NCBI GenBank assembly: GCA_023266845.1
Contig: JAHFPH010000003.1
Location: 1-59,617, forward strand
Length of the DNA: 59,617 bases
Reading direction: 5' to 3'
Source of the DNA: Rhodospirillaceae bacterium
GTDB taxonomy: Bacteria; Pseudomonadota; Alphaproteobacteria; JAEULC01
A program made the position numbers and the translations under genes. The notes beneath the pieces are model-generated. The model was not told where the DNA came from. It ran no database searches and saw only the letters and a list, made by a program, of their open reading frames with translations. Numbering within the stretch: position 1 is the first letter of the stretch; each line of letters opens with the position of its first letter. Positions 2,444-25,045 of this stretch are shown here, one piece after another.

Positions 2444-2445
2444 GA

Positions 2446-2874: not shown

Positions 2875-2914
2875 GCGCCGCCTTCCATCCGCCACGCCGT
2901 GCCGCGACTAAGAG

Positions 2915-3949: not shown

Positions 3950-3997
3950 GTTTCCTCTCCTATGTGCGTGTTTCGATGCGGATTGGACGCCGGGCCG

Positions 3998-5844: not shown

Positions 5845-6125
5845 CGGATGATCCCGCCCCGGTCCGAATTCGGCTACCCCGACGCCCAATGAAAATTGCC
5901 GGCAACGGCGGTCGGGCGGCCTTTCACAGAGTCGGCCATATCGAAGTTACAGGCCAGAAAAAAACGTCGTCCAGTAAACAATTGCGGCGGCGCAACCGTT
6001 GCGTCCAGCGTGGAAATTGATCAAGGTGAAGCGACGCAAGCCGCGCGTTTTCAAGCTCCTGCTCGGGTTGTGAGTTTTTGGCGTGATCAAATCGCATGGG
6101 ATGATGCGTAATCGAGGTCGGCCGG

Positions 6126-7812: not shown

Positions 7813-7955
7813 TGATCTTCTCCCATGGCGCCGCCCACTCCTGCCCACGAATACGGCGGCGTTCGTCATTGACACACAATATTATAAGGATGGATGCTGG
7901 CATATAAGCAAGAATTCGGCAAAGCGACGAAGCTTTTGCCATGGGGAGGATCACG

Positions 7956-9173: not shown

Positions 9174-9205
9174 CCGGCCTGGGTTAAGCGCCGGCCGGCC
9201 CGGCC

Positions 9206-10057
9206 ATGCCGAGCGCCACGCTCCTCGGCCAGTCGGTGCTGTCCGGAATCTTCGCCGGCGGGCTCTACGCGCTTCTGGGGCTCGGCCTCAGTCTGTCGTG
9301 GCGATTTCTGCGCGTCATCAACCTGGCGCATTTCGGGTTCATCTTCCTCGCGGCCTACATGATCTACCAGCTTGCCGGGGTGTGGGGGCTAAGCCCCTTC
9401 GCCGCGATGCTGCTGGTGGTGCCGTGCCTGTTCCTTCTGGGCGTGGCGCTGCAGGCGCTGTTCCTGCGCTTCTCGATCAACGAGTTCGGATCGCTGCTGG
9501 TCACGTTCGGCATTCTGACCATCACCGAGGCCGCGATCCAATGGATTTGGACGGCCGACTTCCGGCGGCTGGAAACCCCATACGGCACCGCGTCCTATCG
9601 CGTCGGCGAGCTGTTCGTTCCGGTCGCCGAGGCGCTGACCTTCGCCGTGGCGGTGACGTTGTCGATCAGCGTCTGGGCCCTGCTGCGCTTCACTTATATA
9701 GGCAAGGCGATCCGCGCCAGCGCGGACGATCCCGACATGGCCGCCGCGTTCGGAGTGCGTGGCCACGGCTTGGCGCTGCTGCTGTCGGGCGCGGTGGCGG
9801 CGACGGCCGGAATCGCCGGCACCTTCATCGCGCTGATCGCCACCCTGGCGCCGGCGCAGATATTTTCCTGGATCGGCGTGATCTTCGCCGTGGTGATTCT
9901 CGGCGGGCTCGGCAATCCGTTCGGTATTCTGGCGGCGGGGTTGCTGATCGGCGTAAGCGAGGCGGTGACCATGGCGCTGACCGCGCCGTCATGGGCGCCG
10001 CTCGTGTCCTTCAGCCTGCTGATCCTGATCCTCGTCCTGCGGCCGGGCCGGATCTGA
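9206..10057 (+). CDS. branched-chain-amino-acid-type ABC permease (LivH family)
   Basis: 283 aa, polytopic, LivH-like (INLAHFGFIFLAAY, GGLGNPFG). Confidence 0.9.
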   Translation: MPSATLLGQSVLSGIFAGGLYALLGLGLSLSWRFLRVINLAHFGFIFLAAYMIYQLAGVWGLSPFAAMLLVVPCLFLLGVALQALFLRFSINEFGSLLVTFGILTITEAAIQWIWTADFRRLETPYGTASYRVGELFVPVAEALTFAVAVTLSISVWALLRFTYIGKAIRASADDPDMAAAFGVRGHGLALLLSGAVAATAGIAGTFIALIATLAPAQIFSWIGVIFAVVILGGLGNPFGILAAGLLIGVSEAVTMALTAPSWAPLVSFSLLILILVLRPGRI

Positions 10058-10058
10058 C

Positions 10059-11798: not shown

Positions 11799-12507
11799 CG
11801 TCGCGGGACTCGAGGTCGCGTACGGCGACGCGCCGGCGCTGTGGGACGCGAGCCTGGAAATCGGCGAAGGCGAGCTGGTGTCGGTGGTCGGACCGAACGG
11901 CGCGGGCAAGACCACGCTGGTCAACGCCATTGCACGGCTGTTGCCGGTGCGCCGAGGAAAACTGCTGCTCGACGGCGCGGACGCGGCGCCCCTCACCCCG
12001 CGCGAGATGTGCGAACGGGGCGTGGCGATCATCCCGGAAGGCCGCCGACTGTTCGTATCGATGACCGTCGAAGAAAACATCGACATGGGCTGCTACCGAA
12101 GCCAGGCGCGGCGCTTCCGCGCGCAAGGGCTGGAGCGCGTCTATGCGATGTTTCCGCGGCTCAACCAGCGGCGGCGGCAGCAGGCCGGCACGCTGTCCGG
12201 CGGCGAGCAGCAGATGCTGGCCATCGCGCGCGCGTTGATGGCGCGGCCGCGATTGCTGCTGATCGACGAGCCCTCGCTTGGCCTGGCGCCGGCGATCGTG
12301 CAACAAGTGTTCGAAACCATCCGCGGCATCCATGCTGAGGGCGTCTCGATCCTGCTGATCGAGCAGAACGCCGCCCAGGCGCTGGCGATCGCCGAGCGCG
12401 CCTATGTGCTGGAAGGCGGGCGCACCATCGCCTCGGGCAAGCCCAAGGAGTTGCTGGCCGAGCCGCATATCCGCGATGCTTATCTGGGCGGAAACAAGGA
12501 GAAATGA
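11791..12507 (+). CDS. ABC transporter ATP-binding protein (LivF family)
   Basis: 238 aa. Walker A GPNGAGKTT, signature LSGGEQQMLAIARAL, Walker B LLLIDEPS. 8-nt overlap with the previous gene. Confidence 0.9.
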   Translation: MLSVAGLEVAYGDAPALWDASLEIGEGELVSVVGPNGAGKTTLVNAIARLLPVRRGKLLLDGADAAPLTPREMCERGVAIIPEGRRLFVSMTVEENIDMGCYRSQARRFRAQGLERVYAMFPRLNQRRRQQAGTLSGGEQQMLAIARALMARPRLLLIDEPSLGLAPAIVQQVFETIRGIHAEGVSILLIEQNAAQALAIAERAYVLEGGRTIASGKPKELLAEPHIRDAYLGGNKEK

Positions 12508-13655
12508 CCATGCTTCGCAGCACCACGCGTTTCCTGACCACCCACACCGGCAGCCTGCCGCGCCCGGAAGACCTGATCCGCACGATGTACGCCAAGGAAG
12601 AGGGCGTACCGGTGGATCGCGCGGGGCTCGCCCAGCGCGTGCGCTCGGCGGTGGCCGAGGTGGTGCAGAAACAAGCCAAAGCCGGCGTCGACTGGATCAA
12701 CGACGGCGAGATGTCGAAGCCCAGCTACGCGACCTATGTGAAGGACCGCCTGAAAGGCTTCGGCGGCACCGGCAACACGTTCGTGTACGGCGACCTGGTG
12801 GAGTTTCCCAACCTGGGCAAGCGCGTGTTCGGCGACCCCGGACGCTCGCGGCGCAAGACCCCGGCCTGCAACGCGCCGATCGGCGTCGCCGACGCCCAGG
12901 CGGCGCGAACCGACGTGGACAATCTGAAGGCGGCGCTGAAGGACGTTAAGTCGGAAGGCGCGTTCATGAGCGCGGCTTCGCCCGGCGTGGTGTCGCTGTT
13001 TTTCCGCAACGACCACTATCCGAGCTTCGAGAAATACATCTTCGCCATCGCCGACGCGATGCGCCACGAATACGAAACCGTGGCGAAGGCGGGCATCACC
13101 CTGCAGATCGACTGCCCCGACTTGGCGATGGGTCGGCACATCCAGTATTACGACCTGAGCGTGCCCGAGTTCCGCAAGCGCGCCCAGATGCATGTCGAGG
13201 CGCTGAACCACGCCACCGCCAACATTCCGGCCGAGCAGCTGCGCATGCATGTCTGCTGGGGCAACTATGAAGGACCGCATCACTGCGACGTGCCGCTGGC
13301 CGATATCGTCGATATCGTGTTCAAAGCGCGGCCCAGTGCGATTTCGTTCGAAGCCGCCAACCCGCGCCACGCCCATGAGTGGACGCTGTTCGAAAGCATC
13401 AAGCTGCCAGACGGCAAGATGTTGATCCCGGGCGTGCTCGAATCCAAGTCGAACTTCATCGAGCATCCCGACCTGGTGGCCCAGCGAATCGCGCGCTACG
13501 CCAACCTGGTGGGCCGCGAGAACGTGATCGCGGGCAGCGATTGCGGCTACGGCACCTGGGTGGGCCAGGCGGCGGTCGATCCCGACGTGGTATGGGCCAA
13601 GCTGGCGGCGATGGCCGAGGGCGCGCGCATCGCCTCGCGCAAGTTCTGGAAATAG
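12504..13655 (+). CDS. cobalamin-independent methionine synthase (MetE) catalytic-domain-like Zn enzyme
   Basis: 383 aa. N-terminal TTHTGSLPRPEDL block. H-x-C (MHVCWGN) and a later SDCGYG cysteine match the MetE-type Zn site. ATGA overlap with the LivF stop. An alternative ATG at 12510 has better spacing to AAGGAG. Confidence 0.85.
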   Translation: MTMLRSTTRFLTTHTGSLPRPEDLIRTMYAKEEGVPVDRAGLAQRVRSAVAEVVQKQAKAGVDWINDGEMSKPSYATYVKDRLKGFGGTGNTFVYGDLVEFPNLGKRVFGDPGRSRRKTPACNAPIGVADAQAARTDVDNLKAALKDVKSEGAFMSAASPGVVSLFFRNDHYPSFEKYIFAIADAMRHEYETVAKAGITLQIDCPDLAMGRHIQYYDLSVPEFRKRAQMHVEALNHATANIPAEQLRMHVCWGNYEGPHHCDVPLADIVDIVFKARPSAISFEAANPRHAHEWTLFESIKLPDGKMLIPGVLESKSNFIEHPDLVAQRIARYANLVGRENVIAGSDCGYGTWVGQAAVDPDVVWAKLAAMAEGARIASRKFWK

Positions 13656-13774
13656 CCCCGGGGCGGACGCCATAGGCCCAGAGAAATCTCACACGGTATG
13701 TGAGAAGAAATCGCGGGCGCGACCGCGCCTTGGATTGCTAGGGTAACGGGGCCAAGCGACCTCGGGGGACCCAA

Positions 13775-14755
13775 ATGCCCGTCATCGTGGGAAGCGGCGA
13801 GTACACCTATCGGGTCGTCGAAAACTGGGCGAAGCTGCCCGCGAGCATGACGTTCGGCGACGTGGCGGCGATCGGCGTGGATTCGAAGGATCGCGTGTAT
13901 TGCTTCAACCGCGGCCGGCATCCGATGATCGTGTTCGACCGCGACGGCAAATTCCTGAAATCCTGGGGCGAGAAAACCTTCAAGCACGCCCACGGCGTCC
14001 ACATGGGGCCGGACGACACGATCTATTGCACCGACGACGGCGACCATACCGTGCGCAAATGCACGCTGGACGGCAAGGTGCTGCTGAAAATCGGCCTGCC
14101 GGGCAAGCCCGCGCCCAAGCTGAGCGGCAAGCCGTTCAACCGCTGCACCCACACGGCGCTGTCGCCGAATGGCGAGATCTATGTGTCCGACGGTTACGGC
14201 AATGCCTGCGTCCACAAATACACGGCCCACGGCAAGCTGGTAAAATCTTGGGGCGGGCCGGGCGCGGACACCGGCCAGTTCAACATTCCGCACAACATCA
14301 CCTGCGACGCGGACGGCTGGGTGTATGTCGCGGACCGCGAGAACCATCGGGTGCAGATTTTCGACGGCAACGGCAAGTACGAGACGCAGTGGAACAACAT
14401 GCACCGGCCGAGCGGCCTGTTCATGACCGCGGGCAAGTGCCCGATCTGCTATATCGGCGAGATCGGTCCCTATCTGCCGGTCAACCGCGACATGCCCAAT
14501 TTGGGGCCGCGCGTCAGCATCGTCGACCACACGGGCAAGCTGCTGGGCCGGCTCGACCGCGTTCCGCCCGCCGGCACCAGCCCCGGGCAGTTCCTGTCGC
14601 CGCACGGCATCGCGGTCGATTCGCAGGGCGATCTTTACGTCGGCGAGGTGGCCGAGGCGGCCTGGCCTTCGCTGTTCCCCGGCAAAAAAATGCCCGATCC
14701 GCTGCGGCGAATGCAGAAATTCATCAGGGTTACGAACAGGACGGAAAAGAAATAG
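13775..14755 (+). CDS. NHL-repeat six-bladed beta-propeller, peptidyl-alpha-hydroxyglycine lyase (PAL)-like
   Basis: 326 aa. Repeated blades (VDSKDRVYCFNRG.., TDDGDHTVRK, YVSDGYGNACVHKY, YVADRENHRVQIFD, PHGIAVDSQGDLYVGE). No N-terminal signal peptide. Confidence 0.8.
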   Translation: MPVIVGSGEYTYRVVENWAKLPASMTFGDVAAIGVDSKDRVYCFNRGRHPMIVFDRDGKFLKSWGEKTFKHAHGVHMGPDDTIYCTDDGDHTVRKCTLDGKVLLKIGLPGKPAPKLSGKPFNRCTHTALSPNGEIYVSDGYGNACVHKYTAHGKLVKSWGGPGADTGQFNIPHNITCDADGWVYVADRENHRVQIFDGNGKYETQWNNMHRPSGLFMTAGKCPICYIGEIGPYLPVNRDMPNLGPRVSIVDHTGKLLGRLDRVPPAGTSPGQFLSPHGIAVDSQGDLYVGEVAEAAWPSLFPGKKMPDPLRRMQKFIRVTNRTEKK

Positions 14756-14762
14756 CCGCCTT

Positions 14763-15686
14763 CTATTGCGCCGCCAGCGCCGGGCGGCGCTGCAGCTCGG
14801 CCACCTCGCCTTTCAGCCAGTTGGCGAAGTTCTGCACCTTGGGCTGCCCGGCGCTTGCTTCCGAATAGACGATGTAATAGGCCTGCCCGGTTCTGAGCTT
14901 CTTGTCGAACAGCGGCACCAGCCGGCCGTTATTGACGTCGTCGTGGATGAACATGGTCTGCGCCATGGCGATTCCCAGGCCGTCGACGGCGCCCTGATAG
15001 ACCAACCCCGAATATTCCAGCCGCAACCCGCTCTGCGGATCGACCTTGGTGGCGCCAGCGGCCTCGAGCCACAATTTCCAGTCGTCGGGCCGGCGCAGCG
15101 CGTGCAGCAGCAGGAACGGCGCTAAATCGTCCGCCGTACGCAAGGAATGGCCCGCGATCAGGGCGGGGCTGCCCACCGGCACCAGCTCTTCATAGAACAG
15201 CGGCTCGCACACCAGGTTGGGCCAGTCGCCATGGCCGATCCAGACGGCGATATCGACATCGACGTCCGGGTCGTTCGGGCGCGGTGAGCTGTAGGTGTCG
15301 ACTTGGAGCTGCAGGTCGGGAAAACGCTGCTTGAACCGCGCCAGGCGCGGCACCAGCAGCCGCATGGCGAAGGTGGGCAGCACGCCGATGCGCAGCAGCC
15401 CACGCTCGGAATGCGCGTCGAAATTCGCGACCGTGGCCTCTTGGATCTGGTCGAACAGCACCTGCAGGCTGGCCGCATAGGCCGCGCCCTTCTTGGTCAA
15501 GATCACCTGCTGGTGCTTGCGCTCGAACAGCTTGGCGTTGAGGAATTCCTCGAGCTTGGCCACTTGGCGGCTGACCGCGCCATGCGTCACCGCCAGCTCC
15601 TGCGCCGCGCGCGACAGGCTGTGATGTCGCGCCGCGGCCTCGAACGCGCGCAACGAATTCAACGGTGGCAGGCGGCGGCCGGGCAT
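14763..15686 (-). CDS. LysR-family transcriptional regulator (GcvA-like)
   Basis: Start placed at ATG 15686 (MPGRRLPPLNSLRAFEAAARHHSLSRAAQELAVTHGAVSRQVAKLE). wHTH plus a LysR substrate-binding domain. Confidence 0.88.
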   Translation of the reverse strand: MPGRRLPPLNSLRAFEAAARHHSLSRAAQELAVTHGAVSRQVAKLEEFLNAKLFERKHQQVILTKKGAAYAASLQVLFDQIQEATVANFDAHSERGLLRIGVLPTFAMRLLVPRLARFKQRFPDLQLQVDTYSSPRPNDPDVDVDIAVWIGHGDWPNLVCEPLFYEELVPVGSPALIAGHSLRTADDLAPFLLLHALRRPDDWKLWLEAAGATKVDPQSGLRLEYSGLVYQGAVDGLGIAMAQTMFIHDDVNNGRLVPLFDKKLRTGQAYYIVYSEASAGQPKVQNFANWLKGEVAELQRRPALAAQ

Positions 15687-15941
15687 CTCTTTTTGTTCCG
15701 TTCGCTCGAACGCGCTGTGAAAAGCACGTGTTCGCAATCCGCGTGTCGATCACGATGGAATTATTCTAAGCCAGGTTCAGCCGCTCAGCTATGCCGGAAC
15801 TTTATGCAATTTCAGCTAGTTACACTCCAGGCGTGAGTTTTTTTGACTCATACTGGGAAATTTATACCGGACGCAATGCACGCGCCTTACCTCTGCGTTC
15901 AGCCGTGAGAATGCGCCATGACGTTGATCGGCGTGAGCAAG

Positions 15942-16808
15942 TCACGCACCTGAAAGGAACCGCTTCGCGTAACCGTCGTAGTCGGCGGCGCGTGTAACCC
16001 AGTCCATCAGCTCCTTGGCGGCAACGTTCGGCAGCTTCGACGCGGGCACGCCTTCCTGCGCCGCCTTCATAGTGTCGTGCACCGCCTTGACCGCGGCGTT
16101 GAAGGCCTGGTGGCCGGGACTCCATACCCGCACCTTGCGGTTCGCCAGATAAGCCGGATCGGCCAGCGCCTCGCCACTGCCGCCGGTCACCAGCGGCAGC
16201 TTCACCGCTGCCGCGATGCGGTCCAGCTCATCGCGGGTCTTGATGCCCGGCACCATCAGCGCGTCCACGCCCGCCGCTTCGTAGGCTTTCAGGCGCGCGA
16301 TGGCGTCGTCCACGCCGTTGACCTGCGCGGCGCTGGTGCGGCCAAGGATCACGAGCGTCGGATCGCGCCGCGCCGCCAACGCCGCCTTCATCTTGCCCAC
16401 ACCTTCGTCGATCGAAATGAATTGCGCGGCGGACGACGAGCCATGCTCGCGCGGCAGCTTGGTGTCTTCGATGGTAAGGCCGGCGACGCCCGCGGTCTCC
16501 AGCTCTTCCGCCGTGCGCATCACGTTCAACGCATTTCCGTAGCCGTGATCGGCGTCCACCAGTAGCGCCACGTCGCTGGCGCGGCAGGCGCGCCTGGCCT
16601 GATCGGCGAATTCCGTTAGCGTCAGCAGGATCACGTCGGGCGCGCCCAGCACCGCGAACGAGGCGAGCGAGCCGCCCATAAGCCCCACCTCGACGCCCAG
16701 CTTGTCGGCGATGCGGGCCGAGATCGGATCCCACACCGAGCCGGCGGTGACGCAACGCTGCCCCGCCAGGATTTTTCGCAGCCGGGTTCTTTTCTCCGTG
16801 GACTGCAT
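15942..16808 (-). CDS. isocitrate lyase/PEP mutase superfamily protein (oxaloacetate decarboxylase / oxo-acid lyase-like)
   Basis: Internal ATG 16808 (MQSTEKRTRLRKIL..) avoids overlap with the upstream gene. Motifs: DADHGYGNALNV, GLTIEDTKLP. Confidence 0.85.
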   Translation of the reverse strand: MQSTEKRTRLRKILAGQRCVTAGSVWDPISARIADKLGVEVGLMGGSLASFAVLGAPDVILLTLTEFADQARRACRASDVALLVDADHGYGNALNVMRTAEELETAGVAGLTIEDTKLPREHGSSSAAQFISIDEGVGKMKAALAARRDPTLVILGRTSAAQVNGVDDAIARLKAYEAAGVDALMVPGIKTRDELDRIAAAVKLPLVTGGSGEALADPAYLANRKVRVWSPGHQAFNAAVKAVHDTMKAAQEGVPASKLPNVAAKELMDWVTRAADYDGYAKRFLSGA

Positions 16809-16890
16809 CGGTCGTTCCCCCATGCCTAGCGCCGCGCGACGCCTGCGTTCCGGCGGGCGCGACGCCATAGCATACGGCAAAGCCGCCCGA

Positions 16891-17862
16891 TTATCGCTTC
16901 GGCGCTTCCAGCACGCGCACCGGCTTGCCATCGAGGAACGCCAGCACGTTCTCGACGCATTGGCCGTAGAACTCGCGGAACGTCTCGACCGTGCCGTAGC
17001 CCAGATGCGGCGTCAGCACCGTGTTGGGCGCGCTGCGCAGCGGATGGCCTGCCGGCAGCGGCTCGCGGTCGAACACGTCCAGTGCCGCGATCAACCGCCC
17101 CGACCGCAGCTCCTTCAGCAGCGCCGCCTCGTCCACCAGCGGCCCGCGCGAGGTGTTCACCAGCACCGCGCCGCGCTTCATCTTCGCCAGGTCGCCGGCG
17201 CCGATGATGCCGCGCGAACGGTCGGACAGCACGAGATGCAGGGTGACCACATCTGATTGCGAAAGCAATTCGTCCTTGGACGCCAGCGCCGCACCGCCCG
17301 CAGTCGCGGCTTCGGCCGTGAGGTTCTGGCTCCAAGCGATCACGTGCATCTCCAGCGCCTTGCCAAAGCGCGCCATCAGCTTTCCGATCCGCCCCAGGCC
17401 GACGATGCCCAGCGTTTTGCCGGTGAGATCGAACCCGGCGGCGACGCCTTCCTGGAATCTTCCGGCGCGGATTGCCGCATCGGCCGCCGGAATGTGCCGC
17501 GCCGCCGCCAACATCACACCCAGCGTCAGCTCGGCGGTGTTGGTGCCGGACCGGCCGCCGCCGGTGTAGCAGACCGTGACGCCGTGCGAGATCATTTCGG
17601 CGGTGTTGACGGAAGCGGCGCGCGCACCGGTCAGACTGAACATCTTCAGTTTCGGCAGGCGGCGCACCAGCGTGGCGGGAAAGGCAGTGCGTTCGCGCAT
17701 CGACAGCACGATGTCGAAATCGGCGAGCTGCTTCGCCGCGTCGTCCTCGCTGCCGAACGCCTCGTGGAAGAACCGCACCTCGGCGCGCTTCATCAGCGCC
17801 GACCAGTCCGCGCTGCCCAGCGCCAGCTTCTGCCAATCGTCGATCACCGCGACCCTGGTCAT
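16891..17862 (-). CDS. D-isomer-specific 2-hydroxyacid dehydrogenase family protein
   Basis: 323 aa. NAD fold GIVGLGRIGKLMA. Catalytic-type blocks: NTSRGPLVDE, TPHLGY. Confidence 0.88.
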   Translation of the reverse strand: MTRVAVIDDWQKLALGSADWSALMKRAEVRFFHEAFGSEDDAAKQLADFDIVLSMRERTAFPATLVRRLPKLKMFSLTGARAASVNTAEMISHGVTVCYTGGGRSGTNTAELTLGVMLAAARHIPAADAAIRAGRFQEGVAAGFDLTGKTLGIVGLGRIGKLMARFGKALEMHVIAWSQNLTAEAATAGGAALASKDELLSQSDVVTLHLVLSDRSRGIIGAGDLAKMKRGAVLVNTSRGPLVDEAALLKELRSGRLIAALDVFDREPLPAGHPLRSAPNTVLTPHLGYGTVETFREFYGQCVENVLAFLDGKPVRVLEAPKR

Positions 17863-17872
17863 TCCCCGCCCC

Positions 17873-18676
17873 TCAGCGCTTCAATCCGTGGACGAATTTC
17901 GCCTTTTCCGCCGCCGCGCCCAGAAGAAACGACAGGTCCGAACCGATCGACACGTAGCGCGCGCCTTGGGCCACCAGGTCCGCCACCAGGTCCGGGCGCG
18001 AGCCCAGGCCGCCGATGCCCGCGTGCTTGCCGTGCTTGCGGCAGGCGGCGATGACGCGCGTATAGGCGGCGCGCGCCAGTTTATGGTCGTACTGGCCGGG
18101 AATGCCCAACTCGCCGCATAAATCGTTGCTGCCGATCAGCAGTACGTCGACGCCCGGCACGGCTGCGATCTCTTCAACATGTTCCAGGCCGTCCTTGGTT
18201 TCGAGCATGGGAACCACCAGCGTGGCGTCGTTGGCCGCCGCGTTGGCTTCGGGCACCGGAAAATCTCGGAACTGGTACTGCGCCAGCGGTCCGCCGGCCG
18301 ACCGCGTGCCCGCCGGCGGGTATTTGACGCAGCGCACAACTTCTTTCGCCTCGGCTGCGGATTGGACATGCGGCGCGATCACGCCCAGCGCGCCGCCGTC
18401 CAGCGCGCGCGCGATGTAGTCGGGCGTGTTGGCGGGCACCCGCACCAGCGGCGTAATCCCGGCGTCGAGCGCGGCGACGCAAATTTGACTCGCGGTGTCG
18501 AGCGAGAAGCTGCTGTGCTCCAGGTCCACGTACAGCGTGTCGAAGCCGCTGCTGGCGGCGATGCGCGCGATCTCGACGCCGCGCGCCAGCCGCACCACCA
18601 TCGAGGCCACCACCTCGTCGCGCCCAAGCTTTTCCTTGACGTTGTTGCGCAGAATCTGCCGCAGGGTTTGGGGCAT
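17873..18676 (-). CDS. HpcH/HpaI-family class II 2-oxo-acid aldolase
   Basis: 267 aa. Motifs: FDTLYVDLEHSSF, VRVP, GVDVLLIGSNDL, as in HpcH/YfaU/GarL-type aldolases. Confidence 0.88.
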   Translation of the reverse strand: MPQTLRQILRNNVKEKLGRDEVVASMVVRLARGVEIARIAASSGFDTLYVDLEHSSFSLDTASQICVAALDAGITPLVRVPANTPDYIARALDGGALGVIAPHVQSAAEAKEVVRCVKYPPAGTRSAGGPLAQYQFRDFPVPEANAAANDATLVVPMLETKDGLEHVEEIAAVPGVDVLLIGSNDLCGELGIPGQYDHKLARAAYTRVIAACRKHGKHAGIGGLGSRPDLVADLVAQGARYVSIGSDLSFLLGAAAEKAKFVHGLKR

Positions 18677-18695
18677 GCCCGGTTCCTTTGTTTCT

Positions 18696-19427
18696 CTATT
18701 TAAGGTTTCGGTTCCACAGCGCGAACAGTTTCGTCCAGGTCTCCTCGGCGGCGGCGGCGTTGTAGTCCTTGCGCGCGGGGAAGCAATAGCCGTGATGCGT
18801 GCCTTTCACGATCTCGCAGGTGTATTCGACCTTGGCTTTGTCCAGGGCCTGCTTCAGCGTCGGGATCACGGGCGCCGGCACGTCGGGATCGACCTCGGCG
18901 AAGCCCAGATACAACTCGGCCTTGATGCGGTCGGCCAGGAGATGCGGCGAATCCTCCTTGTCGGTGACGATGCCGATGCCGTAGAGCGACGCGGCCGCGG
19001 CGATGCGCTGCGGAAATTTTCCGGCCGCGGTCACGACATAGCGCCCGCTCATGCAATAGCCGACGCAGCCCACCGGCCCGGGTTTCACCTTTTCCTGCGC
19101 GTCGAGGAACAGCAGCATTCCGCCCGTGTCGTCGGCCACCAGCGTGTTGTTCAGCGTGTTCATCGCGGCGCGGATCACCGTCGACATGGCCTCGTCGCGG
19201 CGCGGGATGTCGAAGCGCAGCATGCCGTTGCGATAGTACATGTCGGGCAGCAGGCAGAAATATCCATGCTTGGCGACGCGACGCGCGAAGTTGCGCAATT
19301 CCTCGCGGATGCCCGGCGCGTCCATGTAGATGATGACGGGCGGAAAGCGCCCCGGCCCTTCGGGGCAAGCGGCGAAGGCCGGCATGCCGCCGTGCTTGGT
19401 ACCGACGATGACATCCTGTTCGATCAT
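18696..19427 (-). CDS. dienelactone hydrolase family protein
   Basis: 243 aa. Cys nucleophile elbow VGYCMSGRY and a C-terminal GTHHGY block, as in the DLH family. Confidence 0.85.
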   Translation of the reverse strand: MIEQDVIVGTKHGGMPAFAACPEGPGRFPPVIIYMDAPGIREELRNFARRVAKHGYFCLLPDMYYRNGMLRFDIPRRDEAMSTVIRAAMNTLNNTLVADDTGGMLLFLDAQEKVKPGPVGCVGYCMSGRYVVTAAGKFPQRIAAAASLYGIGIVTDKEDSPHLLADRIKAELYLGFAEVDPDVPAPVIPTLKQALDKAKVEYTCEIVKGTHHGYCFPARKDYNAAAAEETWTKLFALWNRNLK

Positions 19428-19508
19428 GGCGAAGCGTCCTTGCGGGTTCGATAAAGGCGCGGCCCCGGGACGCGAACGCCCCAGGACAGCGCAACGAGAT
19501 AACGCGAC

Positions 19509-20528
19509 TTATGCAGACGTTGCCCGCGCGATCTTCACCAGCTCGGGCAGGAACAGTTCGGGGAATTTCTCGATCACCGGCGCCGTCGCGACGCGGAACG
19601 ATTCCACGTCCACGTTCAGATTCACCTCCATGCCCTTTTCTTTCAGGAAGGCATACACTTCTTGCTCGTCCTTTTCGGTGTAGTTGCGCAGATAGGTATC
19701 CGCCTCCTTGGCCGCTGCCAGGAACGCCTTTTGCTCGTCGGCAGAAAGGTCGTCGAACGCCTTCGGATTCACCACTGTATAGGCGATGGTCAAGACATGG
19801 TCGGTCTTGGAAACGTATTTCTGCACTTCGTAGTATTTGTTCGATTTGGCGACCGCAGCCGGCGTTTCCTGCCCGTCGGCGACGCCCTGGCTAAGCGCCA
19901 AATACAGCTCGCTCAGGTCCACCGCCACGGTGGATGATCCCAATTGCTGCATCAAGGCGATATACGACTTCGAATTGGGCACGCGCATCTTCAGGCCGAC
20001 CATGTCCTTGGCCGAGTTGATCGGCCGCTTGTTGTTGGTGACGCAGCGGAAGCCAAGGTCGGTCCAACCCACCAGCTTGAAGCCCTTTTCCAGCGAGCGC
20101 TTGCGCAGTTCGTCGCCGAATGCGCCTTCGATCGCCCGGTGCGCCTGGGCGCGGCTTTTCCAAAGGAACGGTGCGTCGGTGACCGACATCTCGGGCACCC
20201 AGTTCATCAATCCCACGCCGATCGCGCCCATTTCGAGCGATCCGATGCGCACTGCCTGGGCCGTGTCGCGCTCGTTGCCCATCTGCGCGTTGGGGAAGAG
20301 CTGCACCTCGATTTTGCCGCCGGTCTTGGCCTCGATCGATTTCTTGAACTGCTCGGCCCAGATCTGCCAGCCATGCGCCGTGGGCGCGGGATGGGCAAGA
20401 CGGATGCGCTTGGGCGCGGCTTGGGCCCTGACGCCGACCAGGGGCAGCGCCGTCAGCGCGGCGGCGGCGCCTGCCAGCTTAAGGACGTCGCGACGCGACG
20501 CCCGCGATTTGCGATGGAATGAATTCAT
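19509..20528 (-). CDS. dctP: TRAP transporter substrate-binding subunit (DctP family)
   Basis: 339 aa. Leader is SRRDVLKLAGAAAALTALPL. Blocks: IRLAHPAP, FPNAQMG. Confidence 0.9.
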   Translation of the reverse strand: MNSFHRKSRASRRDVLKLAGAAAALTALPLVGVRAQAAPKRIRLAHPAPTAHGWQIWAEQFKKSIEAKTGGKIEVQLFPNAQMGNERDTAQAVRIGSLEMGAIGVGLMNWVPEMSVTDAPFLWKSRAQAHRAIEGAFGDELRKRSLEKGFKLVGWTDLGFRCVTNNKRPINSAKDMVGLKMRVPNSKSYIALMQQLGSSTVAVDLSELYLALSQGVADGQETPAAVAKSNKYYEVQKYVSKTDHVLTIAYTVVNPKAFDDLSADEQKAFLAAAKEADTYLRNYTEKDEQEVYAFLKEKGMEVNLNVDVESFRVATAPVIEKFPELFLPELVKIARATSA

Positions 20529-20552
20529 GTGTTTCCTCCTGTTGCGTATCGC

Positions 20553-22445
20553 TTAGTACTTGAAGTTGAACAGCCTGGGCAGCACGGTCGTGATCCAGGG
20601 CACATAGGCCACGAACAGCAGACCCACGAACATGACCGCGAGATACCAGAGCAGCGGCCGCGTGGCGCGTTCGACTGTCGCGCCGCAGATCGAGCAGGCG
20701 ACGTAAAGGGCGATGCCGATCGGCGGCAGAATCGAGCCGATGCCGAACGCCTCGACCATCAGGATGCCGTATTGCAGCGGGTTGATGCCGAGCAGCAGTG
20801 CTGCGGGCAAAAGCAGCGGCGCCAGGATGATGATGGTGACGAAGCTTTCCAGCATCGCGCCGACCAGCACGGTGATCACGATCACCGCCGGCAGGAACGC
20901 GGCATAGCCGAGGCTGCCCATCGCCTGGGCGATGGCGACGGCCATGCCCTGCAGCGTCATGGCCCACGAGAACACCGTGGCCGCGCTGACGGTGAAGAAG
21001 ATCATGCCGTTCAGCAGCGTCGCCTCGGTCAGGATCTGCCAGATATTGCCCCGGCCAATCTCGCGGTAGATCAGCCCCAGGGCCAGGCCATAGACCACGG
21101 CGAAGGTCGACACTTCGGTCGGCGTGCCGACGCCTGCGACGATGCCGCCGATCAGCACCACCGGCATCAGCAACGGCAGCACGGCGCGCCGCCCGGTGCG
21201 CAGCACCTCGGCGCGCGGCGCGCGCGCGCTCGACGGCCAGCCGGCGATCCTGGCGCGGATATACACCAGCAGCATCAGGCAGGCCGCGACCACCGCCGCC
21301 GGCAGAAAGCCGCCGATGAACAGCGCGCCGGTGGATACCGACGTGACCGACCCCAGCAGGATGATTGCGATGCTCGGCGGCACCGATTCGCCCATCGCCG
21401 CCGAGGCGGCCAGCAGCGCCGCCTGCTCGTGCGGCGCGTAGCCGCGCTTGCCCAGCATCTTTTTCATCGGGATGCCGATCGTGGCCATGTCGGCGGCCTT
21501 CGATCCGGAAATGCCCGACGAGATGTACACGCCCACGATCATCACCTGCATCAACCCGCCGCGGACATGGCCGATCAGCGAGGCGACGAATTCGACGATG
21601 CGCGCGCCGATATCGCCGCGGTCGGTGATGAAGCCGGCGAGGATGAAGAACGGCAGCGCCAGGAAGATGAACCCGCCCGAGCCGCGCTGCGCGTTCATCA
21701 CCACGGCCATCATATTGGCCGATCCGGTGGCATAGACGCAGGCGACGCCCACCGCCCCCAGAACGAAGCCGATGGGAACGCCGATCGCGAGCTGCGCCAG
21801 AAACAACGCGGCCAGCATCAGATACAGCGCGTTGCTGTGGATCCAGGCCGCGTCGCGCGACAGCGCGATCAGCAGCAGCACGGCGGCGACGCCGGCCGCC
21901 GAGCCCAGGGCCGCGCGCAACGGGCGCCGCCACAGCGACAACCCGGCGTGAAGGACGAACAGCGCCGCGCCCAGGGTGATCGGAATCGTCATCCATACAT
22001 AGCCGATACCCAGCAGAATGGTCTTTTCTTCGTAATTGGCGAGCAACAGCGGCACCGAATAGGCGCCGAAAATCAGCGAAATGGCGATCACCGTCCATTC
22101 CACCGCCGCCGCGAAGAATTCGCGCCACGGCTTCGGCAGCCGGTCCACCACCAGCATGATCGCCAGGAACTGCCCGCGGCTATAGGCGACCGCGCCGCCC
22201 ATGAACGACAGGAAAACCAGATAGAGCCACGAGGTCTCGTCGAAGCCCATCAGCAGCGAGGTGTTGAACAACCAGCGCAGCATGGTGTTGCTGAACACCA
22301 GCGCGACCTCGACCACCAGCCCGACATTGAGCAGCGCCAGCACCGCCCCGTCGATCCGCTTCAGCCATTGCGGCACATCGGGCGCGTAGCCCGGGGTCTC
22401 GGCGACGCCGATATCCACCAGGGAAGCCGGCGCGTCGGCTGGCAC
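20553..22445 (-). CDS. fused TRAP small/large permease (DctQ-DctM, SiaQM-like)
   Basis: C-terminal ~630 codons of the 929-aa track ORF. A DctQ-like 4-TM region (WLKRIDGAVLALLNVG..) is followed by a full DctM. There is no in-frame ATG before the first TM; GTG 22445, 2 nt after the hydratase stop, is the proposed start. Confidence 0.85.
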   Translation of the reverse strand: MPADAPASLVDIGVAETPGYAPDVPQWLKRIDGAVLALLNVGLVVEVALVFSNTMLRWLFNTSLLMGFDETSWLYLVFLSFMGGAVAYSRGQFLAIMLVVDRLPKPWREFFAAAVEWTVIAISLIFGAYSVPLLLANYEEKTILLGIGYVWMTIPITLGAALFVLHAGLSLWRRPLRAALGSAAGVAAVLLLIALSRDAAWIHSNALYLMLAALFLAQLAIGVPIGFVLGAVGVACVYATGSANMMAVVMNAQRGSGGFIFLALPFFILAGFITDRGDIGARIVEFVASLIGHVRGGLMQVMIVGVYISSGISGSKAADMATIGIPMKKMLGKRGYAPHEQAALLAASAAMGESVPPSIAIILLGSVTSVSTGALFIGGFLPAAVVAACLMLLVYIRARIAGWPSSARAPRAEVLRTGRRAVLPLLMPVVLIGGIVAGVGTPTEVSTFAVVYGLALGLIYREIGRGNIWQILTEATLLNGMIFFTVSAATVFSWAMTLQGMAVAIAQAMGSLGYAAFLPAVIVITVLVGAMLESFVTIIILAPLLLPAALLLGINPLQYGILMVEAFGIGSILPPIGIALYVACSICGATVERATRPLLWYLAVMFVGLLFVAYVPWITTVLPRLFNFKY

Positions 22446-22447
22446 GG

Positions 22448-23203
22448 CTATGCTTCGAACCGGACTTCGGCGGCGCCGAAGCCCGTGAAGGAAGCGGCCA
22501 CGGTCTGCCCGGGCTTGGCGAAATTGAGACCCGTGTAGGTGCCGGTGGTGACCACCGCGCCCAGCGGAATGCCGCCGCCGGAGCGCAAATCGTTCGCCAG
22601 CGCCAGCAACGGCAACAGCGGATCGCCGGTCGGATGGCCGCCGGTCTTGCGCGCGATTTCCCGGCCGCCGATGGCGAGCGTCACTTCGATCTTCGCAAGG
22701 TCGAAGTTGCGCCAATCCGGCCGTAGCGCGCCGCGCACGAAACCGCCATTGGAAACGAAATCGGCGCTGCGATCCAGCAGCGATGCGTCCTTGTAGCTCT
22801 TGAAACGCGAATCCACGATCTCGATCGCGGCAAAGGCCGTAACCGAGCCCGCCACCTCGTCGCGCGAATAGTCCCGCGCGCGCGGCCCCAGGGCGCGGTC
22901 GACCTGGAAAGCGATCTCGGCCTCGACTCCCAACATTCCCATGTCGGCGGCTTTGACGCGCGCCGGGCTGTTGAAAATGCGCGAGCGCAAAATCGCACCG
23001 CGCACCAGTTTGCCGTCGATCGGCGCGGCGACTTTCCACCCGCCCACGGATTCGCCCAGGGCCGCTACGACCGCGGTTTGGATCGCGTGCGCGTCGTCCG
23101 CGCTCGCCGGGCTGCAATCCGCCGGCAGCGCATCGATCAGCCTCCCCGTGCGCCGGGCGTCGATCAACGACCCGGCGGCCTTCTCGATCGCGCGTCGATC
23201 CAT
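22448..23203 (-). CDS. FAH-superfamily 2-oxo-enoate hydratase (MhpD/HpcG-like)
   Basis: The track ORF starts at TTG 23269; ATGs are at 23242 and 23203. The sequence DAHAIQTAVVAALGESVGGWKVA.., GVEAEIAF and a C-terminal TTGT block resemble 2-keto-4-pentenoate / 2-oxohepta-3-ene-1,7-dioate hydratases. Confidence 0.82.
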   Translation of the reverse strand: MDRRAIEKAAGSLIDARRTGRLIDALPADCSPASADDAHAIQTAVVAALGESVGGWKVAAPIDGKLVRGAILRSRIFNSPARVKAADMGMLGVEAEIAFQVDRALGPRARDYSRDEVAGSVTAFAAIEIVDSRFKSYKDASLLDRSADFVSNGGFVRGALRPDWRNFDLAKIEVTLAIGGREIARKTGGHPTGDPLLPLLALANDLRSGGGIPLGAVVTTGTYTGLNFAKPGQTVAASFTGFGAAEVRFEA

Positions 23204-23439
23204 GGCTTCGCGTTTCGCTTCCCGGCGTGATTTTTTTTGCATGAGAGAACGGCCAATCGCGTTGGCCAATGTTATATCGACTTACGATAGGGGTGAAGAG
23301 CCGGATGCAAACCGGCCGCGATGTGAACGGCGATAAACTCACACAAAAATCTCATGCCGGCTTCGGCATGCGCCGGTACCCGCGCGGGATGTTTCCCGGC
23401 GAAGCTACGCCCCGATCTTTTGCCCTATGCGCCGATCGC

Positions 23440-24008
23440 GCCCATCTGCCTGTTGCTGCTCGCCATCGGCGTCTATCCTTCAGGGCGGCGGCGATCGCGA
23501 CAGTGACTCGGCCGAGCTTGGCGGCGAACGCCTTCAGCGCGATGTCCATTTCGCCGTCCGGCGCGTTGTGGCGCAGCGCATGCTCCAGCCGCGCGGCGGA
23601 GTCCTGCGCCTCGTCGGCTCCGATAGGCGCGCAGCGCCGACACCAGCCAGTCGCCTGGCTGCGACGAATTCTGGATCAGCTTCCCGATCCGGTCCTAGTT
23701 GCCGGTCAGCAACTGCCTGAACGTGACCGTCAACACGCGCAGCTCGAACCACGCTCCATCGCGGCGCGGTAGGGCGCGGACAGCAGTGTGTCCACGTCGC
23801 CGAGTACGCCGTCGAAGGCGACGGTAACGGCCTCGGCGATCGGCGGGCTTTGACGGCGGCTGCCCGCGGTGGTCTCCAGCAGCAGCACGAAATTCGCGGT
23901 GTCGATCTTGGTCTGCCCGATGGCCGAAGCCAAATCGGTGCGCGCTTCGATTTTGCTCAGCTTGTATTCTTCAGTGACTTCGACGAGCGCGAGGATCGCC
24001 AGCTCCAC
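23440..24008 (-). pseudogene. possible decayed gene remnant (unknown family)
   Basis: Protein-like (not R/G/P-rich) minus-strand translation is split over three frames: ..ERLLVELAILALVEVTEEYKLSKIEARTDLASAIGQTKIDTANFVLLLETT.., then ..DRIGKLIQNSSQPGDWLVSALRA.., then ..PIGADEAQDSAARLEHALRHNAPDGEMDIALKAFAAKLGRVTVAIAAALKD. No ATG start, and a stop lies immediately upstream. Confidence 0.25.
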
Positions 24009-24064
24009 CAGCAGGCGTTCGGGGGTATGGAGCCGACAATTCTTCGCGTATCCAATAACCGATC

Positions 24065-24101
24065 ACGCCCCGGCCGCGCCACCGGCTTCGCGGGGCGTTT
24101 T
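24065..24101 (+). terminator. GC-rich hairpin with T-run (terminator-like)
   Basis: ACGCCCCG (24065-24072) pairs with CGGGGCGT (24091-24098), followed by TTTT on the plus strand. It lies 51-87 nt beyond the stop of the minus-strand dehydrogenase gene, where it would be read as A-run plus hairpin. Confidence 0.35.
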
Positions 24102-24151
24102 AACCAATGCGATCCGAGATTCAGCCGGGAAAACCGGGGAAAATCGAGGGG

Positions 24152-25045
24152 TTAGCCCCGGATTTCGACGCCCGCGCGCTCCTCGACCACCCGCGCGAGC
24201 GAGGTGAAATCCGAGGCCGCGCCGTATTTATCCTGCGTCGCCTGCAATAGCGCGTGCACCGCCGCTCCCAAGGTCATCGGCACGCCCAGCGCCTTGGCCT
24301 CGGCCATGCACAGCCCGATGTCCTTGTAGGCAAGGCCGGTGGCAAAACCGAAATCGAAGCTGCGCGGCAGGATCGATTTGGGAAACTTGTCCTGCGTGGC
24401 GCTGTTGCGGCCCGTGCCGGCGTTGAAGATATCGACCAGCACCTTCGCGTCGAGCCCGGCCTTCACGCCCATCGCCACCGCCTCGGACGTCGCCGCCAGG
24501 GCCGCGACTGACAAAAGATTGTTGGCGAGCTTCGCGGTCTGCGCCAGGCCCGGCTTTTCGCCGGCGAAGAACGTGCGGCCGAAATTCTTCAGGATCGGCT
24601 CGACCGCCGCGTAGGTTTCCTTGGGGCAGGACACCATGACCGCGAGCGTGCCTTTTTCAGCGCCGGCAACGCCGCCGCTGACCGGCGCGTCCACCCAGCC
24701 GATCTTGCGCTCCTTGAGACCCCCGGCGATCGCGCTCGCCATGCCCTGCCCGGTGGTCGACAGATCGATCAGCGTGCGCACCGAATTCCCTTGCGCCACG
24801 CCGCGCTCGCCCAGCGCCACGCCACGTACGATGTCCGGCGTCGGCAGGCTCATCAGCACGATCTCGGTCCCGGACGCCACCTCGGCGGCCGAGCCGGCCG
24901 ACTTGGCGCCGCGCGCCGTGAGCTTCTTGACCGCCTCGGCGTTGCTGTCGAACACGACCAGCGCATAGCCCGCGTCGATCAGGCGCCGTGCCATCGGCCC
25001 GCCCATGCGCCCCACGCCGATGAAACCGAGCGTCTTTTCCGCCAT
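24152..25045 (-). CDS. NAD(P)-dependent beta-hydroxyacid dehydrogenase (3-hydroxyisobutyrate dehydrogenase family)
   Basis: Start at ATG 25045 (MAEKTLGFIGVGRMGGPMARRL, Rossmann G-x-G-x-x-G). C-terminal 6PGDH-like helical domain. Confidence 0.88.
   Translation of the reverse strand: MAEKTLGFIGVGRMGGPMARRLIDAGYALVVFDSNAEAVKKLTARGAKSAGSAAEVASGTEIVLMSLPTPDIVRGVALGERGVAQGNSVRTLIDLSTTGQGMASAIAGGLKERKIGWVDAPVSGGVAGAEKGTLAVMVSCPKETYAAVEPILKNFGRTFFAGEKPGLAQTAKLANNLLSVAALAATSEAVAMGVKAGLDAKVLVDIFNAGTGRNSATQDKFPKSILPRSFDFGFATGLAYKDIGLCMAEAKALGVPMTLGAAVHALLQATQDKYGAASDFTSLARVVEERAGVEIRG

Follow-up and report, generated by a model that had tools for sequence, protein, structure and literature searches.

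A widely conserved TRAP-linked hydratase-aldolase gene cluster of Alpha- and Betaproteobacteria and its candidate role in the degradation of an acidic lactone or ester

The protocatechuate 4,5-cleavage and gallate pathways use LigI, LigU/GalD, LigJ/GalB and LigK/GalC for hydrolysis of a lactone, isomerisation, hydration of a 2-oxo-enoate and a retro-aldol step that yields pyruvate (plus oxaloacetate), and they are served by a LysR regulator and dedicated uptake. The homoprotocatechuate (HpcG/HpaH and HpcH/HpaI) and tetralin (ThnE/ThnF) pathways contain a two-step logic of hydratase and aldolase. In sinapate and syringate catabolism of Novosphingobium aromaticivorans, the methylesterase DesC and the glutathione S-transferase (GST) isomerase DesD act on the syringate ring-fission ester CHMOD/CHMA (10.1101/160747), as do the alpha/beta hydrolase MgaC and the PF13577 tautomerase MgaD in the syringate route of Pseudomonas sp. 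NGC7 (PMC12314914). Here, we analyzed a stretch of 59,617 nucleotides (the window) of a Rhodospirillaceae bacterium, contig JAHFPH010000003.1, in which a cluster at 14763-23269 combines a tripartite ATP-independent periplasmic (TRAP) transporter with enzymes for the same proposed reactions. This cluster is real and widely conserved in Alpha- and Betaproteobacteria, and would represent a hydratase-aldolase lower pathway with an unusual enzyme set. With moderate confidence, we read seven of its genes as one operon for a catabolic module that depends on TRAP uptake, has four conserved enzymes and would import an acidic lactone or ester and degrade it, probably to pyruvate.

A reading made from the letters of the window alone (the sequence-only reading) had described seven co-directional genes followed by a LysR gene, and their layout, coordinates and spacings agree with the list of open reading frames (ORFs) and their translations. 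All eight are located in the minus strand, and Pfam and NCBIfam profile searches back every one of the family calls:

22448-23203, minus strand: metal-dependent hydratase of the MhpD/HpcG/4-oxalocrotonate-decarboxylase type (FAH superfamily), first gene of the operon
20553-22445, minus strand: fused DctQ-DctM TRAP permease (TRAP1; Pfam DctQ and DctM)
19509-20528, minus strand: DctP-type TRAP solute-binding protein with a Tat-type signal (DctP1; Pfam DctP)
18696-19427, minus strand: Cys hydrolase of the dienelactone hydrolase family (DLH), lactonase or esterase (Pfam DLH)
17873-18676, minus strand: class II pyruvate aldolase of the HpcH/HpaI family (Pfam)
16891-17862, minus strand: D-isomer-specific 2-hydroxyacid dehydrogenase (HADH; Pfam 2-Hacid_dh_C)
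15942-16808, minus strand: PA4872-like enzyme of the PEP-mutase/ICL superfamily (Pfam PEP_mutase)
14763-15686, minus strand: LysR regulator of the GcvA subfamily (NF008352)

From the hydratase to the LysR gene, the intergenic gaps are 2, 24, 81, 19, 10, 82 and 255 nt. The hydratase ORF as listed (22448-23269) begins at a TTG at 23269, and a further upstream start is the ATG at 23242; nevertheless, the ATG at 23203 is the likely true start, since the homologues have 250-256 amino acid residues and begin with MD..AI.

A scan in which each prokaryotic species was represented by one genome gave 80 related loci, and the 49 with closer hydratase orthologues were searched by tblastn with the proteins of the window. 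At least three of HADH, HpcH, DLH, DctP and DctQM are encoded within 10 kb of the hydratase gene in 26 of the 49 loci, and because the same families recur in these loci of Alpha- and Betaproteobacteria, the gene arrangement goes beyond chance. HADH and HpcH genes were each found in 27 loci, DLH in 21 and DctP/DctQM in about 25. HADH is the most constant partner of hydratase and aldolase; these three form the most constant trio, and the hydrolase and the TRAP transporter complete the minimal unit. The alphaproteobacterial carriers include two metagenome-assembled genomes (MAGs) of the same genus as the window, Hyphomicrobiales, Acetobacteraceae and a Rhizobium plasmid, and among the betaproteobacterial ones are Casimicrobiaceae, Comamonadaceae, Variovorax sp. 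dw_308, Paraburkholderia graminis C4D1M and Paraburkholderia sp. NMBU_R16, the last three being cultured. In P. graminis, a divergent LysR gene is followed by the order DctQM-DctP-HpcH-DLH-HADH-hydratase-aldehyde dehydrogenase (ALDH). The compact form in locus L063 has six genes, DctP-ABH2-DctQM-HADH-HpcH-FAH (ABH, alpha/beta-fold hydrolase), which overlap by 4 nt. In the draft of P. graminis C4D1M, the DLH gene (L096, 8236-8969) is called as two pieces of 125 and 141 amino acid residues and a LigK-like gene (G041:C65:382837-383503) is in two pieces with an internal TGA; both may be frameshifts or sequencing errors of an old draft assembly.

Many betaproteobacterial MAGs showed a longer, single co-linear operon with the order DctQM1-DctP1-HpcH-DLH-ABH-HADH-SnoaL_4-GST-DctQ2-DctM2-DctP2-SnoaL_3-hydratase-NHL. 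When these proteins were compared with the genome of the window, an alphaproteobacterial MAG of 3.46 Mb in 200 contigs and 94.7% complete (G000), nearly all best homologues outside the operon were found in the window itself, at 2057-6875 and 13775-14755, with sequence identities of 52-84%:

13775-14755, plus strand: six-bladed beta-propeller protein with NHL repeats (Pfam NHL)
6126-6875, plus strand: small alpha/beta-fold hydrolase (ABH), divergent from the TRAP2 operon (Pfam Abhydrolase_1)
5281-5889, minus strand: DctQ2 of a second TRAP system (TRAP2; Pfam DctQ)
3998-5284, minus strand: DctM2 of the second TRAP system (tblastn)
2915-3949, minus strand: DctP2 of the second TRAP system (Pfam DctP)
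2446-2874, minus strand: SnoaL_4, NTF2-like (tblastn with betaproteobacterial proteins)
2057-2443, minus strand: SnoaL_3/DUF4440, NTF2-like (Pfam and tblastn)

The GST of the set lies outside the window, in contig C164 (4587-5207), with 50-56% identity. By tblastn with the betaproteobacterial proteins, identity was 52-60% for SnoaL_3 and about 60% for SnoaL_4 (52-64% overall); in the window genome it was 64-72% for DctP2, 83% for DctM2, 52-65% for DctQ2, 65% for ABH and 62-67% for the NHL propeller. The ABH orthologues are 59-66% identical and are encoded between the DLH and dehydrogenase genes in 13 related loci; the best NCBIfam match of ABH, a weak one, is the PcaD enol-lactonase. The NHL orthologues are 62-76% identical and directly follow the hydratase gene in nine betaproteobacterial and Hyphomicrobiales loci. 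Furthermore, DctP2 was found in 16 related loci, SnoaL_3 in 14 and SnoaL_4 in nine. The listed ORF of 264 amino acid residues at 2057-2851 is an artefact of high GC content; its true content is the two NTF2-like genes, in different frames and 2 nt apart.

By gene content, the seven-gene operon makes up half of a conserved set that numbers about 14 genes, and the functional unit reaches well beyond 14763-23269. The sequence-only reading thus had the right genes and too narrow a boundary. In the window genome, this set is distributed over three transcription units, with unrelated genes between them. In addition, the aldolase slot holds two HpcH lineages: the form of the window, with 267 amino acid residues, was found only within the genus, at 72-75% identity, and the betaproteobacterial form has 236-241 residues and is 31-39% identical to that of the window, while all other partners are 57-88% identical. 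According to these sequence identities, the difference looks like an in-place replacement by a paralogue.

The interrupted layout is what could speak for a chance mosaic of unrelated catabolic genes with no single pathway. The Liv-type ABC and MetE-like Zn enzyme genes (7941-13655) and a divergent extradiol-dioxygenase-like gene of the VOC family (6892-7875) lie inside the set only in this genome, and the presence of the PEP-mutase gene is clearly recent and local. Furthermore, hydratase orthologues stand alone elsewhere: the one in MAG contig_66302 (L013/L016, 10001-15640; 62% identity) shows no cluster partner and is adjoined by genes for IclR and hydantoinase A/B, so that the hydratase family is not confined to the cluster. 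However, the same families are found together across two proteobacterial classes and in several gene orders, often overlapping or near-abutting, and the gaps in the window operon are only 2-82 nt; a chance mosaic, disfavoured already by the recurrence of the families, is therefore extremely unlikely.

The VOC gene also bears on a second alternative, in which an aromatic acid enters the cell intact and is degraded by an ordinary meta-cleavage pathway, with the cluster as its lower half:

6892-7875: two-domain VOC extradiol-dioxygenase-like gene, nearby and outside the operon (Pfam/NCBIfam)

Here, the dioxygenase would cleave the ring, the ABH at 6126-6875 would act as C-C hydrolase, and hydratase and aldolase would finish the pathway as in mhp/hpa. 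The extradiol-dioxygenase-like and alpha/beta hydrolase genes are 7-9 kb away in the same gene patch, and locus L044 shows a homologue of the dioxygenase (41% identity) and a FAD aromatic hydroxylase, 4 kb from its hydratase gene. The pairing of hydratase and aldolase matches the logic of HpcG/HpcH and ThnE/ThnF, which counts for this alternative as well. Nevertheless, L044 is the only one of 53 related loci with a dioxygenase homologue, and none of the 53 has counterparts of the Liv-type ABC and MetE-like genes of the window or of its aldose-epimerase/SDR pair. The minimal versions of the cluster (Paraburkholderia, Variovorax and L063) lack a dioxygenase, and DLH and dehydrogenase would be superfluous; we thus consider the meta-cleavage alternative very unlikely. 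The sequence-only reading had stated that no ring-cleavage dioxygenase sits in the operon, which is correct for the operon; the VOC gene is located nearby.

Returning to the TRAP-dependent module, the hydratase falls by similarity in the branch of MhpD, HpcG and 4-oxalocrotonate decarboxylase and not with the FAH-type hydrolases. Its only NCBIfam matches are DmpE, DmpH, HpaH and MhpD (E 7e-17 to 2e-11), all far under the equivalog cut-offs (best score, 61.6 bits with DmpE against 408.8; HpaH, 49 against 351), and its PDB sequence matches are restricted to NahK and MhpD-type hydratases. In Pfam, it scores 23.5 bits with FAA_hydrolase (cut-off 23.9), a domain recorded on many of its homologues. 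Residue conservation was counted over homologues gathered from the related loci: E94, E96 and E128, which align with the metal glutamates E106, E108 and E139 of MhpD, are kept in all 31 homologues and K57 in 30 of them. A tblastn search of plasmid records with the hydratase gave six distant matches with no informative annotation, and genes of the TOL/NAH type fell short of E 1e-20.

The DLH (Pfam PF01738, 129.8 bits) shows the GYCMSG elbow at residues 123-128, and C125, D180 and H211/H212 are present in 21 of 21 orthologues. It belongs to the same Pfam family and has the same Cys-Asp-His arrangement as ClcD/TfdE of the chlorocatechol pathways; however, it is very distant from the ClcD-type enzymes (PDB E about 1e-4), and no maleylacetate reductase is present. 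Its closest solved structures are the uncharacterised proteins 3f67 and 4zv9. The aldolase reaches 119 bits with PF03328 (cut-off 25), and D51, H54, R79 and E159 are conserved in 29 of 29 homologues, with E53 and D185 in 28. We take H54, R79, E159 and D185 to correspond to H45, R70, E149 and D175 of HpaI, on the basis of a 9-residue offset in the PDB alignments. None of the specificity models reached its cut-off with the aldolase: HpaI (136 bits against 369), GarL (121 against 407) and RhmA (101 against 441). The dehydrogenase showed PF02826 (2-Hacid_dh_C, 191 bits) and PF00389 (38 bits), a GLGRIG motif at residues 155-160, R239 and H286 in 30 of 30 homologues and E267 in 29. Its best PDB matches are the uncharacterised PGDH-like proteins 3gg9 and 4s1v, it reaches no NCBIfam equivalog cut-off, and a literature search on 3GG9 gave no match.

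The predicted series, in which a lactone is opened, a 2-oxo-enoate hydrated and the product split by a retro-aldol reaction, therefore fits the families, with catalytic residues intact and invariant across orthologues. Because the enzymes miss the equivalog cut-offs, the cluster matches none of the known hpc/hpa, gar, mhp or lig operons; a match with a characterised operon, by which the sequence-only reading would have given way, did not appear. In relation to the lig/gal pathways, DLH is not an amidohydrolase, the FAH-fold hydratase is neither an amidohydrolase nor a PIG-L protein and the HpcH TIM barrel is not of the RraA fold; the obligatory D-2-hydroxyacid dehydrogenase is additional, and the operon is without LigAB/GalA. 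No LigK/GalC-type aldolase (TIGR02798) and no LigI/LigJ amidohydrolases were found in the window. The homoprotocatechuate and tetralin pathways share the two families; however, the scores of the cluster are far short of equivalog level (HpaH and HpaI, above), and TRAP, DLH and dehydrogenase are additional. Neither HpaD/HpcB, HpaE nor HpaF/HpaG is encoded in the operon, and the nearby VOC protein scores 59.9 bits against the HpaD model (cut-off 321). A full-text search of the literature returned no account that combines DLH, HpcH/HpaI, 2-keto-4-pentenoate hydratase, 2-hydroxyacid dehydrogenase and TRAP.

In the proposed pathway, an anionic lactone or ester would be bound by DctP1 and imported via the fused DctQM, and the Cys-type DLH would open it. 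We infer an order of steps in which the D-2-hydroxyacid dehydrogenase is best placed between hydrolysis and hydration, and would convert the freed (R)-2-hydroxy acid into the 2-oxo acid needed by both metal enzymes. The MhpD/HpcG-type Mg/Mn hydratase would then turn the 2-oxo-enoate and water into a 4-hydroxy-2-oxo acid, from which the HpcH-type class II aldolase would release pyruvate and a carbonyl co-product. In this genome only, the PA4872-type putative decarboxylase could convert an oxaloacetate-type beta-keto diacid into further pyruvate, and the wider set would add TRAP2, two NTF2-like putative isomerases, the small alpha/beta hydrolase, the NHL propeller and the GST.

In our inference, the substrate class most likely consists of carboxylated lactones of the enol, diene or pyrone type, or methyl esters, that come from aromatic ring fission, like pyrone dicarboxylate (PDC) or CHMOD, and are already cleaved at uptake. 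We put a ring-fission-derived lactone or ester just short of an even chance, and PDC or CHMOD specifically, which is included in this estimate, as unlikely; a hydroxy- or sugar-acid derivative is also unlikely, to the same or a slightly lesser degree, and the remainder falls to neither class. An aromatic origin is favoured by the families themselves (the MhpD-type hydratase, DLH, PcaD-like and LigI-like lactonases, two NTF2-like proteins and a GST) and by the family-level parallel of alpha/beta hydrolase, GST and SnoaL_4 with DesC/DesD and MgaC/MgaD. In 21 loci, the hydrolase slot is taken by DLH; L037, L056, L057 and L063 have a PcaD-like alpha/beta hydrolase there, and L035 an Amidohydro_2 protein that is LigI-like and closest to 4-sulfomuconolactone hydrolase (182 bits). 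Because three lactonase families displace one another in this slot, the opening of a lactone or ester is supported as a real step. In Paraburkholderia and Variovorax, the gene after that of the hydratase encodes an ALDH, which agrees with an aldolase co-product and recalls the succinic and pimelic semialdehyde dehydrogenases of the homoprotocatechuate and tetralin pathways. A gene encoding a Gfo/Idh/MocA oxidoreductase, the family of LigC, follows the hydratase gene in six loci. Aromatic-type genes were found near some loci: a LigXa-like Rieske gene in L011, the FAD hydroxylase and extradiol dioxygenase genes in L044, and the VOC gene in the window. Furthermore, bacteria that assimilate PDC can be isolated from the environment, including soil (PMC13681972).

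Several results weigh against this assignment. None of the enzymes reaches an NCBIfam equivalog cut-off and the hydratase, with no equivalog-level similarity, is less than 30% identical to any characterised hydratase or decarboxylase, so that the activities are assigned by superfamily. Hydratase orthologues such as that of L013/L016 also stand alone in other contexts. No lower pathway of ring fission offers a precedent for the dehydrogenase step, whose direction is a guess. Of five carrier genomes, three (Variovorax and two betaproteobacterial MAGs) encode, besides the cluster, a LigK that passes the TIGR02798 cut-off. Other contrary results point to sugar or hydroxy acids: Dak1/Dak2 kinase genes are located within the operon in L019 and L034, a rhamnonate-dehydratase-like gene of the enolase superfamily adjoins a hydratase homologue of 49% identity in Pollutimonas, and the ligands of the nearest solved relatives of DctP1 are aliphatic 2,4-dihydroxy acids, not pyrone or oxo-diacids.

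LigK also bears on the strict form of the sequence-only reading, a full non-orthologous replacement of LigI, LigU, LigJ and LigK (plus DesC/DesD) that would convert PDC and/or CHMOD/CHMA/oxalomesaconate into pyruvate and oxaloacetate, with the PA4872-like enzyme supplying the decarboxylase side-activity of LigK. By family, DLH parallels LigI, the hydratase LigJ/GalB and HpcH LigK/GalC, while the alpha/beta hydrolase parallels DesC/MgaC, the GST DesD and SnoaL_4 (PF13577) MgaD. The extended cluster therefore resembles the DesC/DesD and MgaC/MgaD systems in having an alpha/beta esterase, a GST and SnoaL_4 beside hydratase and aldolase, a likeness at the level of Pfam family only; in contrast to the cluster, the hosts of those systems have canonical LigU/J/K or GalD/B/C downstream and a ring-cleaving dioxygenase encoded alongside. 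An oxaloacetate-decarboxylase-like gene sits in the operon, PDC is a genuine environmental growth substrate, and TIGR02798 above cut-off is absent from the whole window genome and from the same-genus relative. However, the strict form leaves the universally present D-2-hydroxyacid dehydrogenase without a step, the PEP-mutase gene is missing from every other locus, and the ALDH or Dak genes of some loci speak for a co-product that is an aldehyde or ketol and not oxaloacetate. Because canonical LigK coexists in three of five carriers, the cluster is not simply a LigK replacement, and we regard the strict form as doubtful. What holds of the LigI/J/K analogy is the lactonase-type hydrolase slot and the DesC/DesD-MgaC/MgaD families; what fails is the dehydrogenase, which has no role in lig/gal, together with the LigK distribution. 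The cluster as a general LigK substitute was rejected, as it fits the window genome and its genus and fails in three of five other carriers. The single LigB-family match in the window genome is on contig C41, of 6.5 kb, with an ambiguous strand call.

A broader version, in which the 14-gene set is a complete independent route that scavenges excreted ring-fission products (PDC, CHMOD and their isomers) via two TRAP importers, with unrelated folds in place of LigI, LigU, LigJ, LigK, DesC and DesD and with 2-hydroxyacid oxidation added, is in our opinion improbable too. The extra oxidation in such a route would imply a reduced or lactonised intermediate new to lignin and tannin turnover.

The PEP-mutase-family gene, which the sequence-only reading counted as a second lyase of the pathway, is not part of the conserved pathway: no homologue was found in any of the 80 related loci, including the same-genus loci L017/L103 and L023/L104. 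The product (Pfam PEP_mutase, 133.6 bits) matches PA4872 of Pseudomonas aeruginosa (PDB 3b8i) with E 2.6e-65 over residues 5-285, the next match being at E 2e-29, and shares with this best solved relative the DADHGYG (residues 85-91) and IEDT (113-116) blocks; these motifs, as well as GYCMSG of the DLH, are thus present as the sequence-only reading had them. Decarboxylase activity is putative, predicted from similarity. Orthologues with 67-74% identity occur in every same-genus genome on other contigs, and their contexts shift: in G006 the gene is located 22 nt after another HpcH paralogue at the end of an Opp-type ABC/TauD operon, and in G005 and G002 between a molybdenum hydroxylase and a Rieske oxygenase. 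The G006 operon (L126, G006:C107, 537-9984) encodes two TauD-family dioxygenases, an Opp/Dpp-type ABC importer, the HpcH paralogue and the PA4872-like protein last, and the locus starts with a 129-residue NHL-like fragment. By its distribution, the gene is a local, window-specific add-on, and as such it cannot define the pathway. Its position after an HpcH aldolase gene in two cases suggests that the enzyme may act on the aldolase product, for example an oxaloacetate-type beta-keto diacid.

The fused permease contains DctQ (residues 47-174) and DctM (214-618) in one frame of 630 amino acid residues, with TIGR00786 at 296 bits (cut-off 268), and DctP1 scores 257 bits with Pfam DctP and 218 with TIGR00787 (cut-off 175). 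The TAXI-type fused TRAP family was ruled out, as TIGR02123 gave only 30 bits. The DctQM orthologues of related loci are 57-76% identical, and DctP1 is the best-conserved protein of the set (62-88% across two proteobacterial classes). The closest solved relatives of DctP1 are 4pdh, 4p9k/4pak, 4nq8 and 4pdd (E 1e-51 to 1e-54), whose bound ligands are D-erythronate or pantoate (PMC11668362). DctP1 keeps R161, R182 and E86, which are the carboxylate Arg pair and the hydroxyl-binding acidic residue of these binders. In contrast, their Asn213 is replaced by T222 and their pocket-closing aromatic residue by L205 in all 18 orthologues; therefore, the ligand should differ from those of the erythronate/pantoate binders. 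DctP1 shows a twin-arginine signal peptide (SRRDVLK, residues 11-17), and DctP2 more weakly, which suggests export by Tat rather than Sec.

The ligands of these relatives favour a module for hydroxy or sugar acids, whose substrate would be an aldonic or aldaric acid of the 2,4-dihydroxy or 3-deoxy type, the carboxylated lactone of such an acid, or an ester of the ascorbate/threonate type. In that case, the dehydrogenase would give the 4-hydroxy-2-oxo acid directly, the aldolase would release pyruvate and glyceraldehyde, glycolaldehyde or tartronate semialdehyde, the hydratase would serve as a dehydratase or salvage enzyme and the DLH would open lactone forms. In keeping with this, the Arg/Arg/acidic triad for alpha-hydroxy-carboxylates is retained in DctP1, the aldolase scores on the GarL and RhmA models nearly equal that on HpaI, the dehydrogenase resembles glyoxylate/hydroxypyruvate and 2-ketogluconate reductases, and Gfo/Idh/MocA is also a family of sugar dehydrogenases; the Dak genes, the ALDH genes and the Pollutimonas neighbour agree as well. 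However, known sugar-acid routes are without two NTF2-like proteins and a GST, the core of the cluster has no aldonate or aldarate dehydratase, and the T222/L205 pocket is not that of the erythronate/pantoate binders. Furthermore, MhpD-type hydratases are, to our knowledge, known only from aromatic and steroid meta-cleavage pathways. On balance, a hydroxy- or sugar-acid module has a low probability, and import of a lactone or ester remains our preferred assignment.

A search of metagenomes for hydratase homologues gave 677 proteins at E ≤0.001, with an identity of 55% or more for each of the best 120. The family forms more than 100 clusters at 90% identity in soil, peat and groundwater metagenomes, with Paraburkholderia, Variovorax and Rhizobium as cultured carriers, and because it is so widespread the cluster would be a common piece of carbon turnover. 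It is new in its enzyme set, its unexplained obligatory dehydrogenase and its two TRAP importers, with no surprise yet at the level of mechanism. Knowledge of the DctP1 ligand would give functions to some 14 gene families in a single step. Should the substrate be a ring-fission lactone or ester, the cluster would point to cross-feeding on cleaved aromatics and offer non-homologous enzymes for lignin-valorisation strains; should it be a hydroxy-acid lactone, an MhpD-type hydratase would for the first time be placed outside the catabolism of aromatics and steroids.

TRAP2 is an unfused system whose DctM2, DctP2 and DctQ2 are 80-84, 64-79 and 52-67% identical, respectively, to the second TRAP system of the related operons. 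DctP2 shows the pocket motifs GGRH, DPSE and DGFE[YF]P, which differ from those of DctP1 and from the DGQENP of typical binders. A third TRAP unit (ABH2, DctQM3 and DctP3) is located in contig C59 of the window genome (L114, 1285-7036), with 58-61% identity to the unit of L037. It adjoins a gene for a protein of 464 amino acid residues from the GcvT family, to which the tetrahydrofolate-dependent aryl O-demethylases LigM and DesA belong, and this neighbourhood counts for the strict lig-type replacement weighed above.

The region upstream of the operon (23204-24151) has no intact gene and closes with a terminator-like hairpin, and a pattern scan delimited the 5' boundary:

23251-23370, minus strand: operon 5' boundary, with a terminator-like hairpin at 23353-23370 and the dyad GGCCAA-N5-TTGGCC at 23251-23267

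Terminator-like sites were not commoner than in shuffled sequence, the sigma-70 promoter pattern scan gave no site, and an Rfam scan of 13500-24500 matched no family. The LysR protein scores 310 bits with NF008352 (cut-off 288), in agreement with the GcvA subfamily. Its gene is probably transcribed from a separate promoter within the 255 nt that precede it, since this gap, which lacks a strong terminator, is AT-richer. In the same-genus locus L017/L103, an orthologue with 83% identity comes directly after the dehydrogenase gene. Finally, the stretch is present in four DNA runs from groundwater metagenomes of one study.

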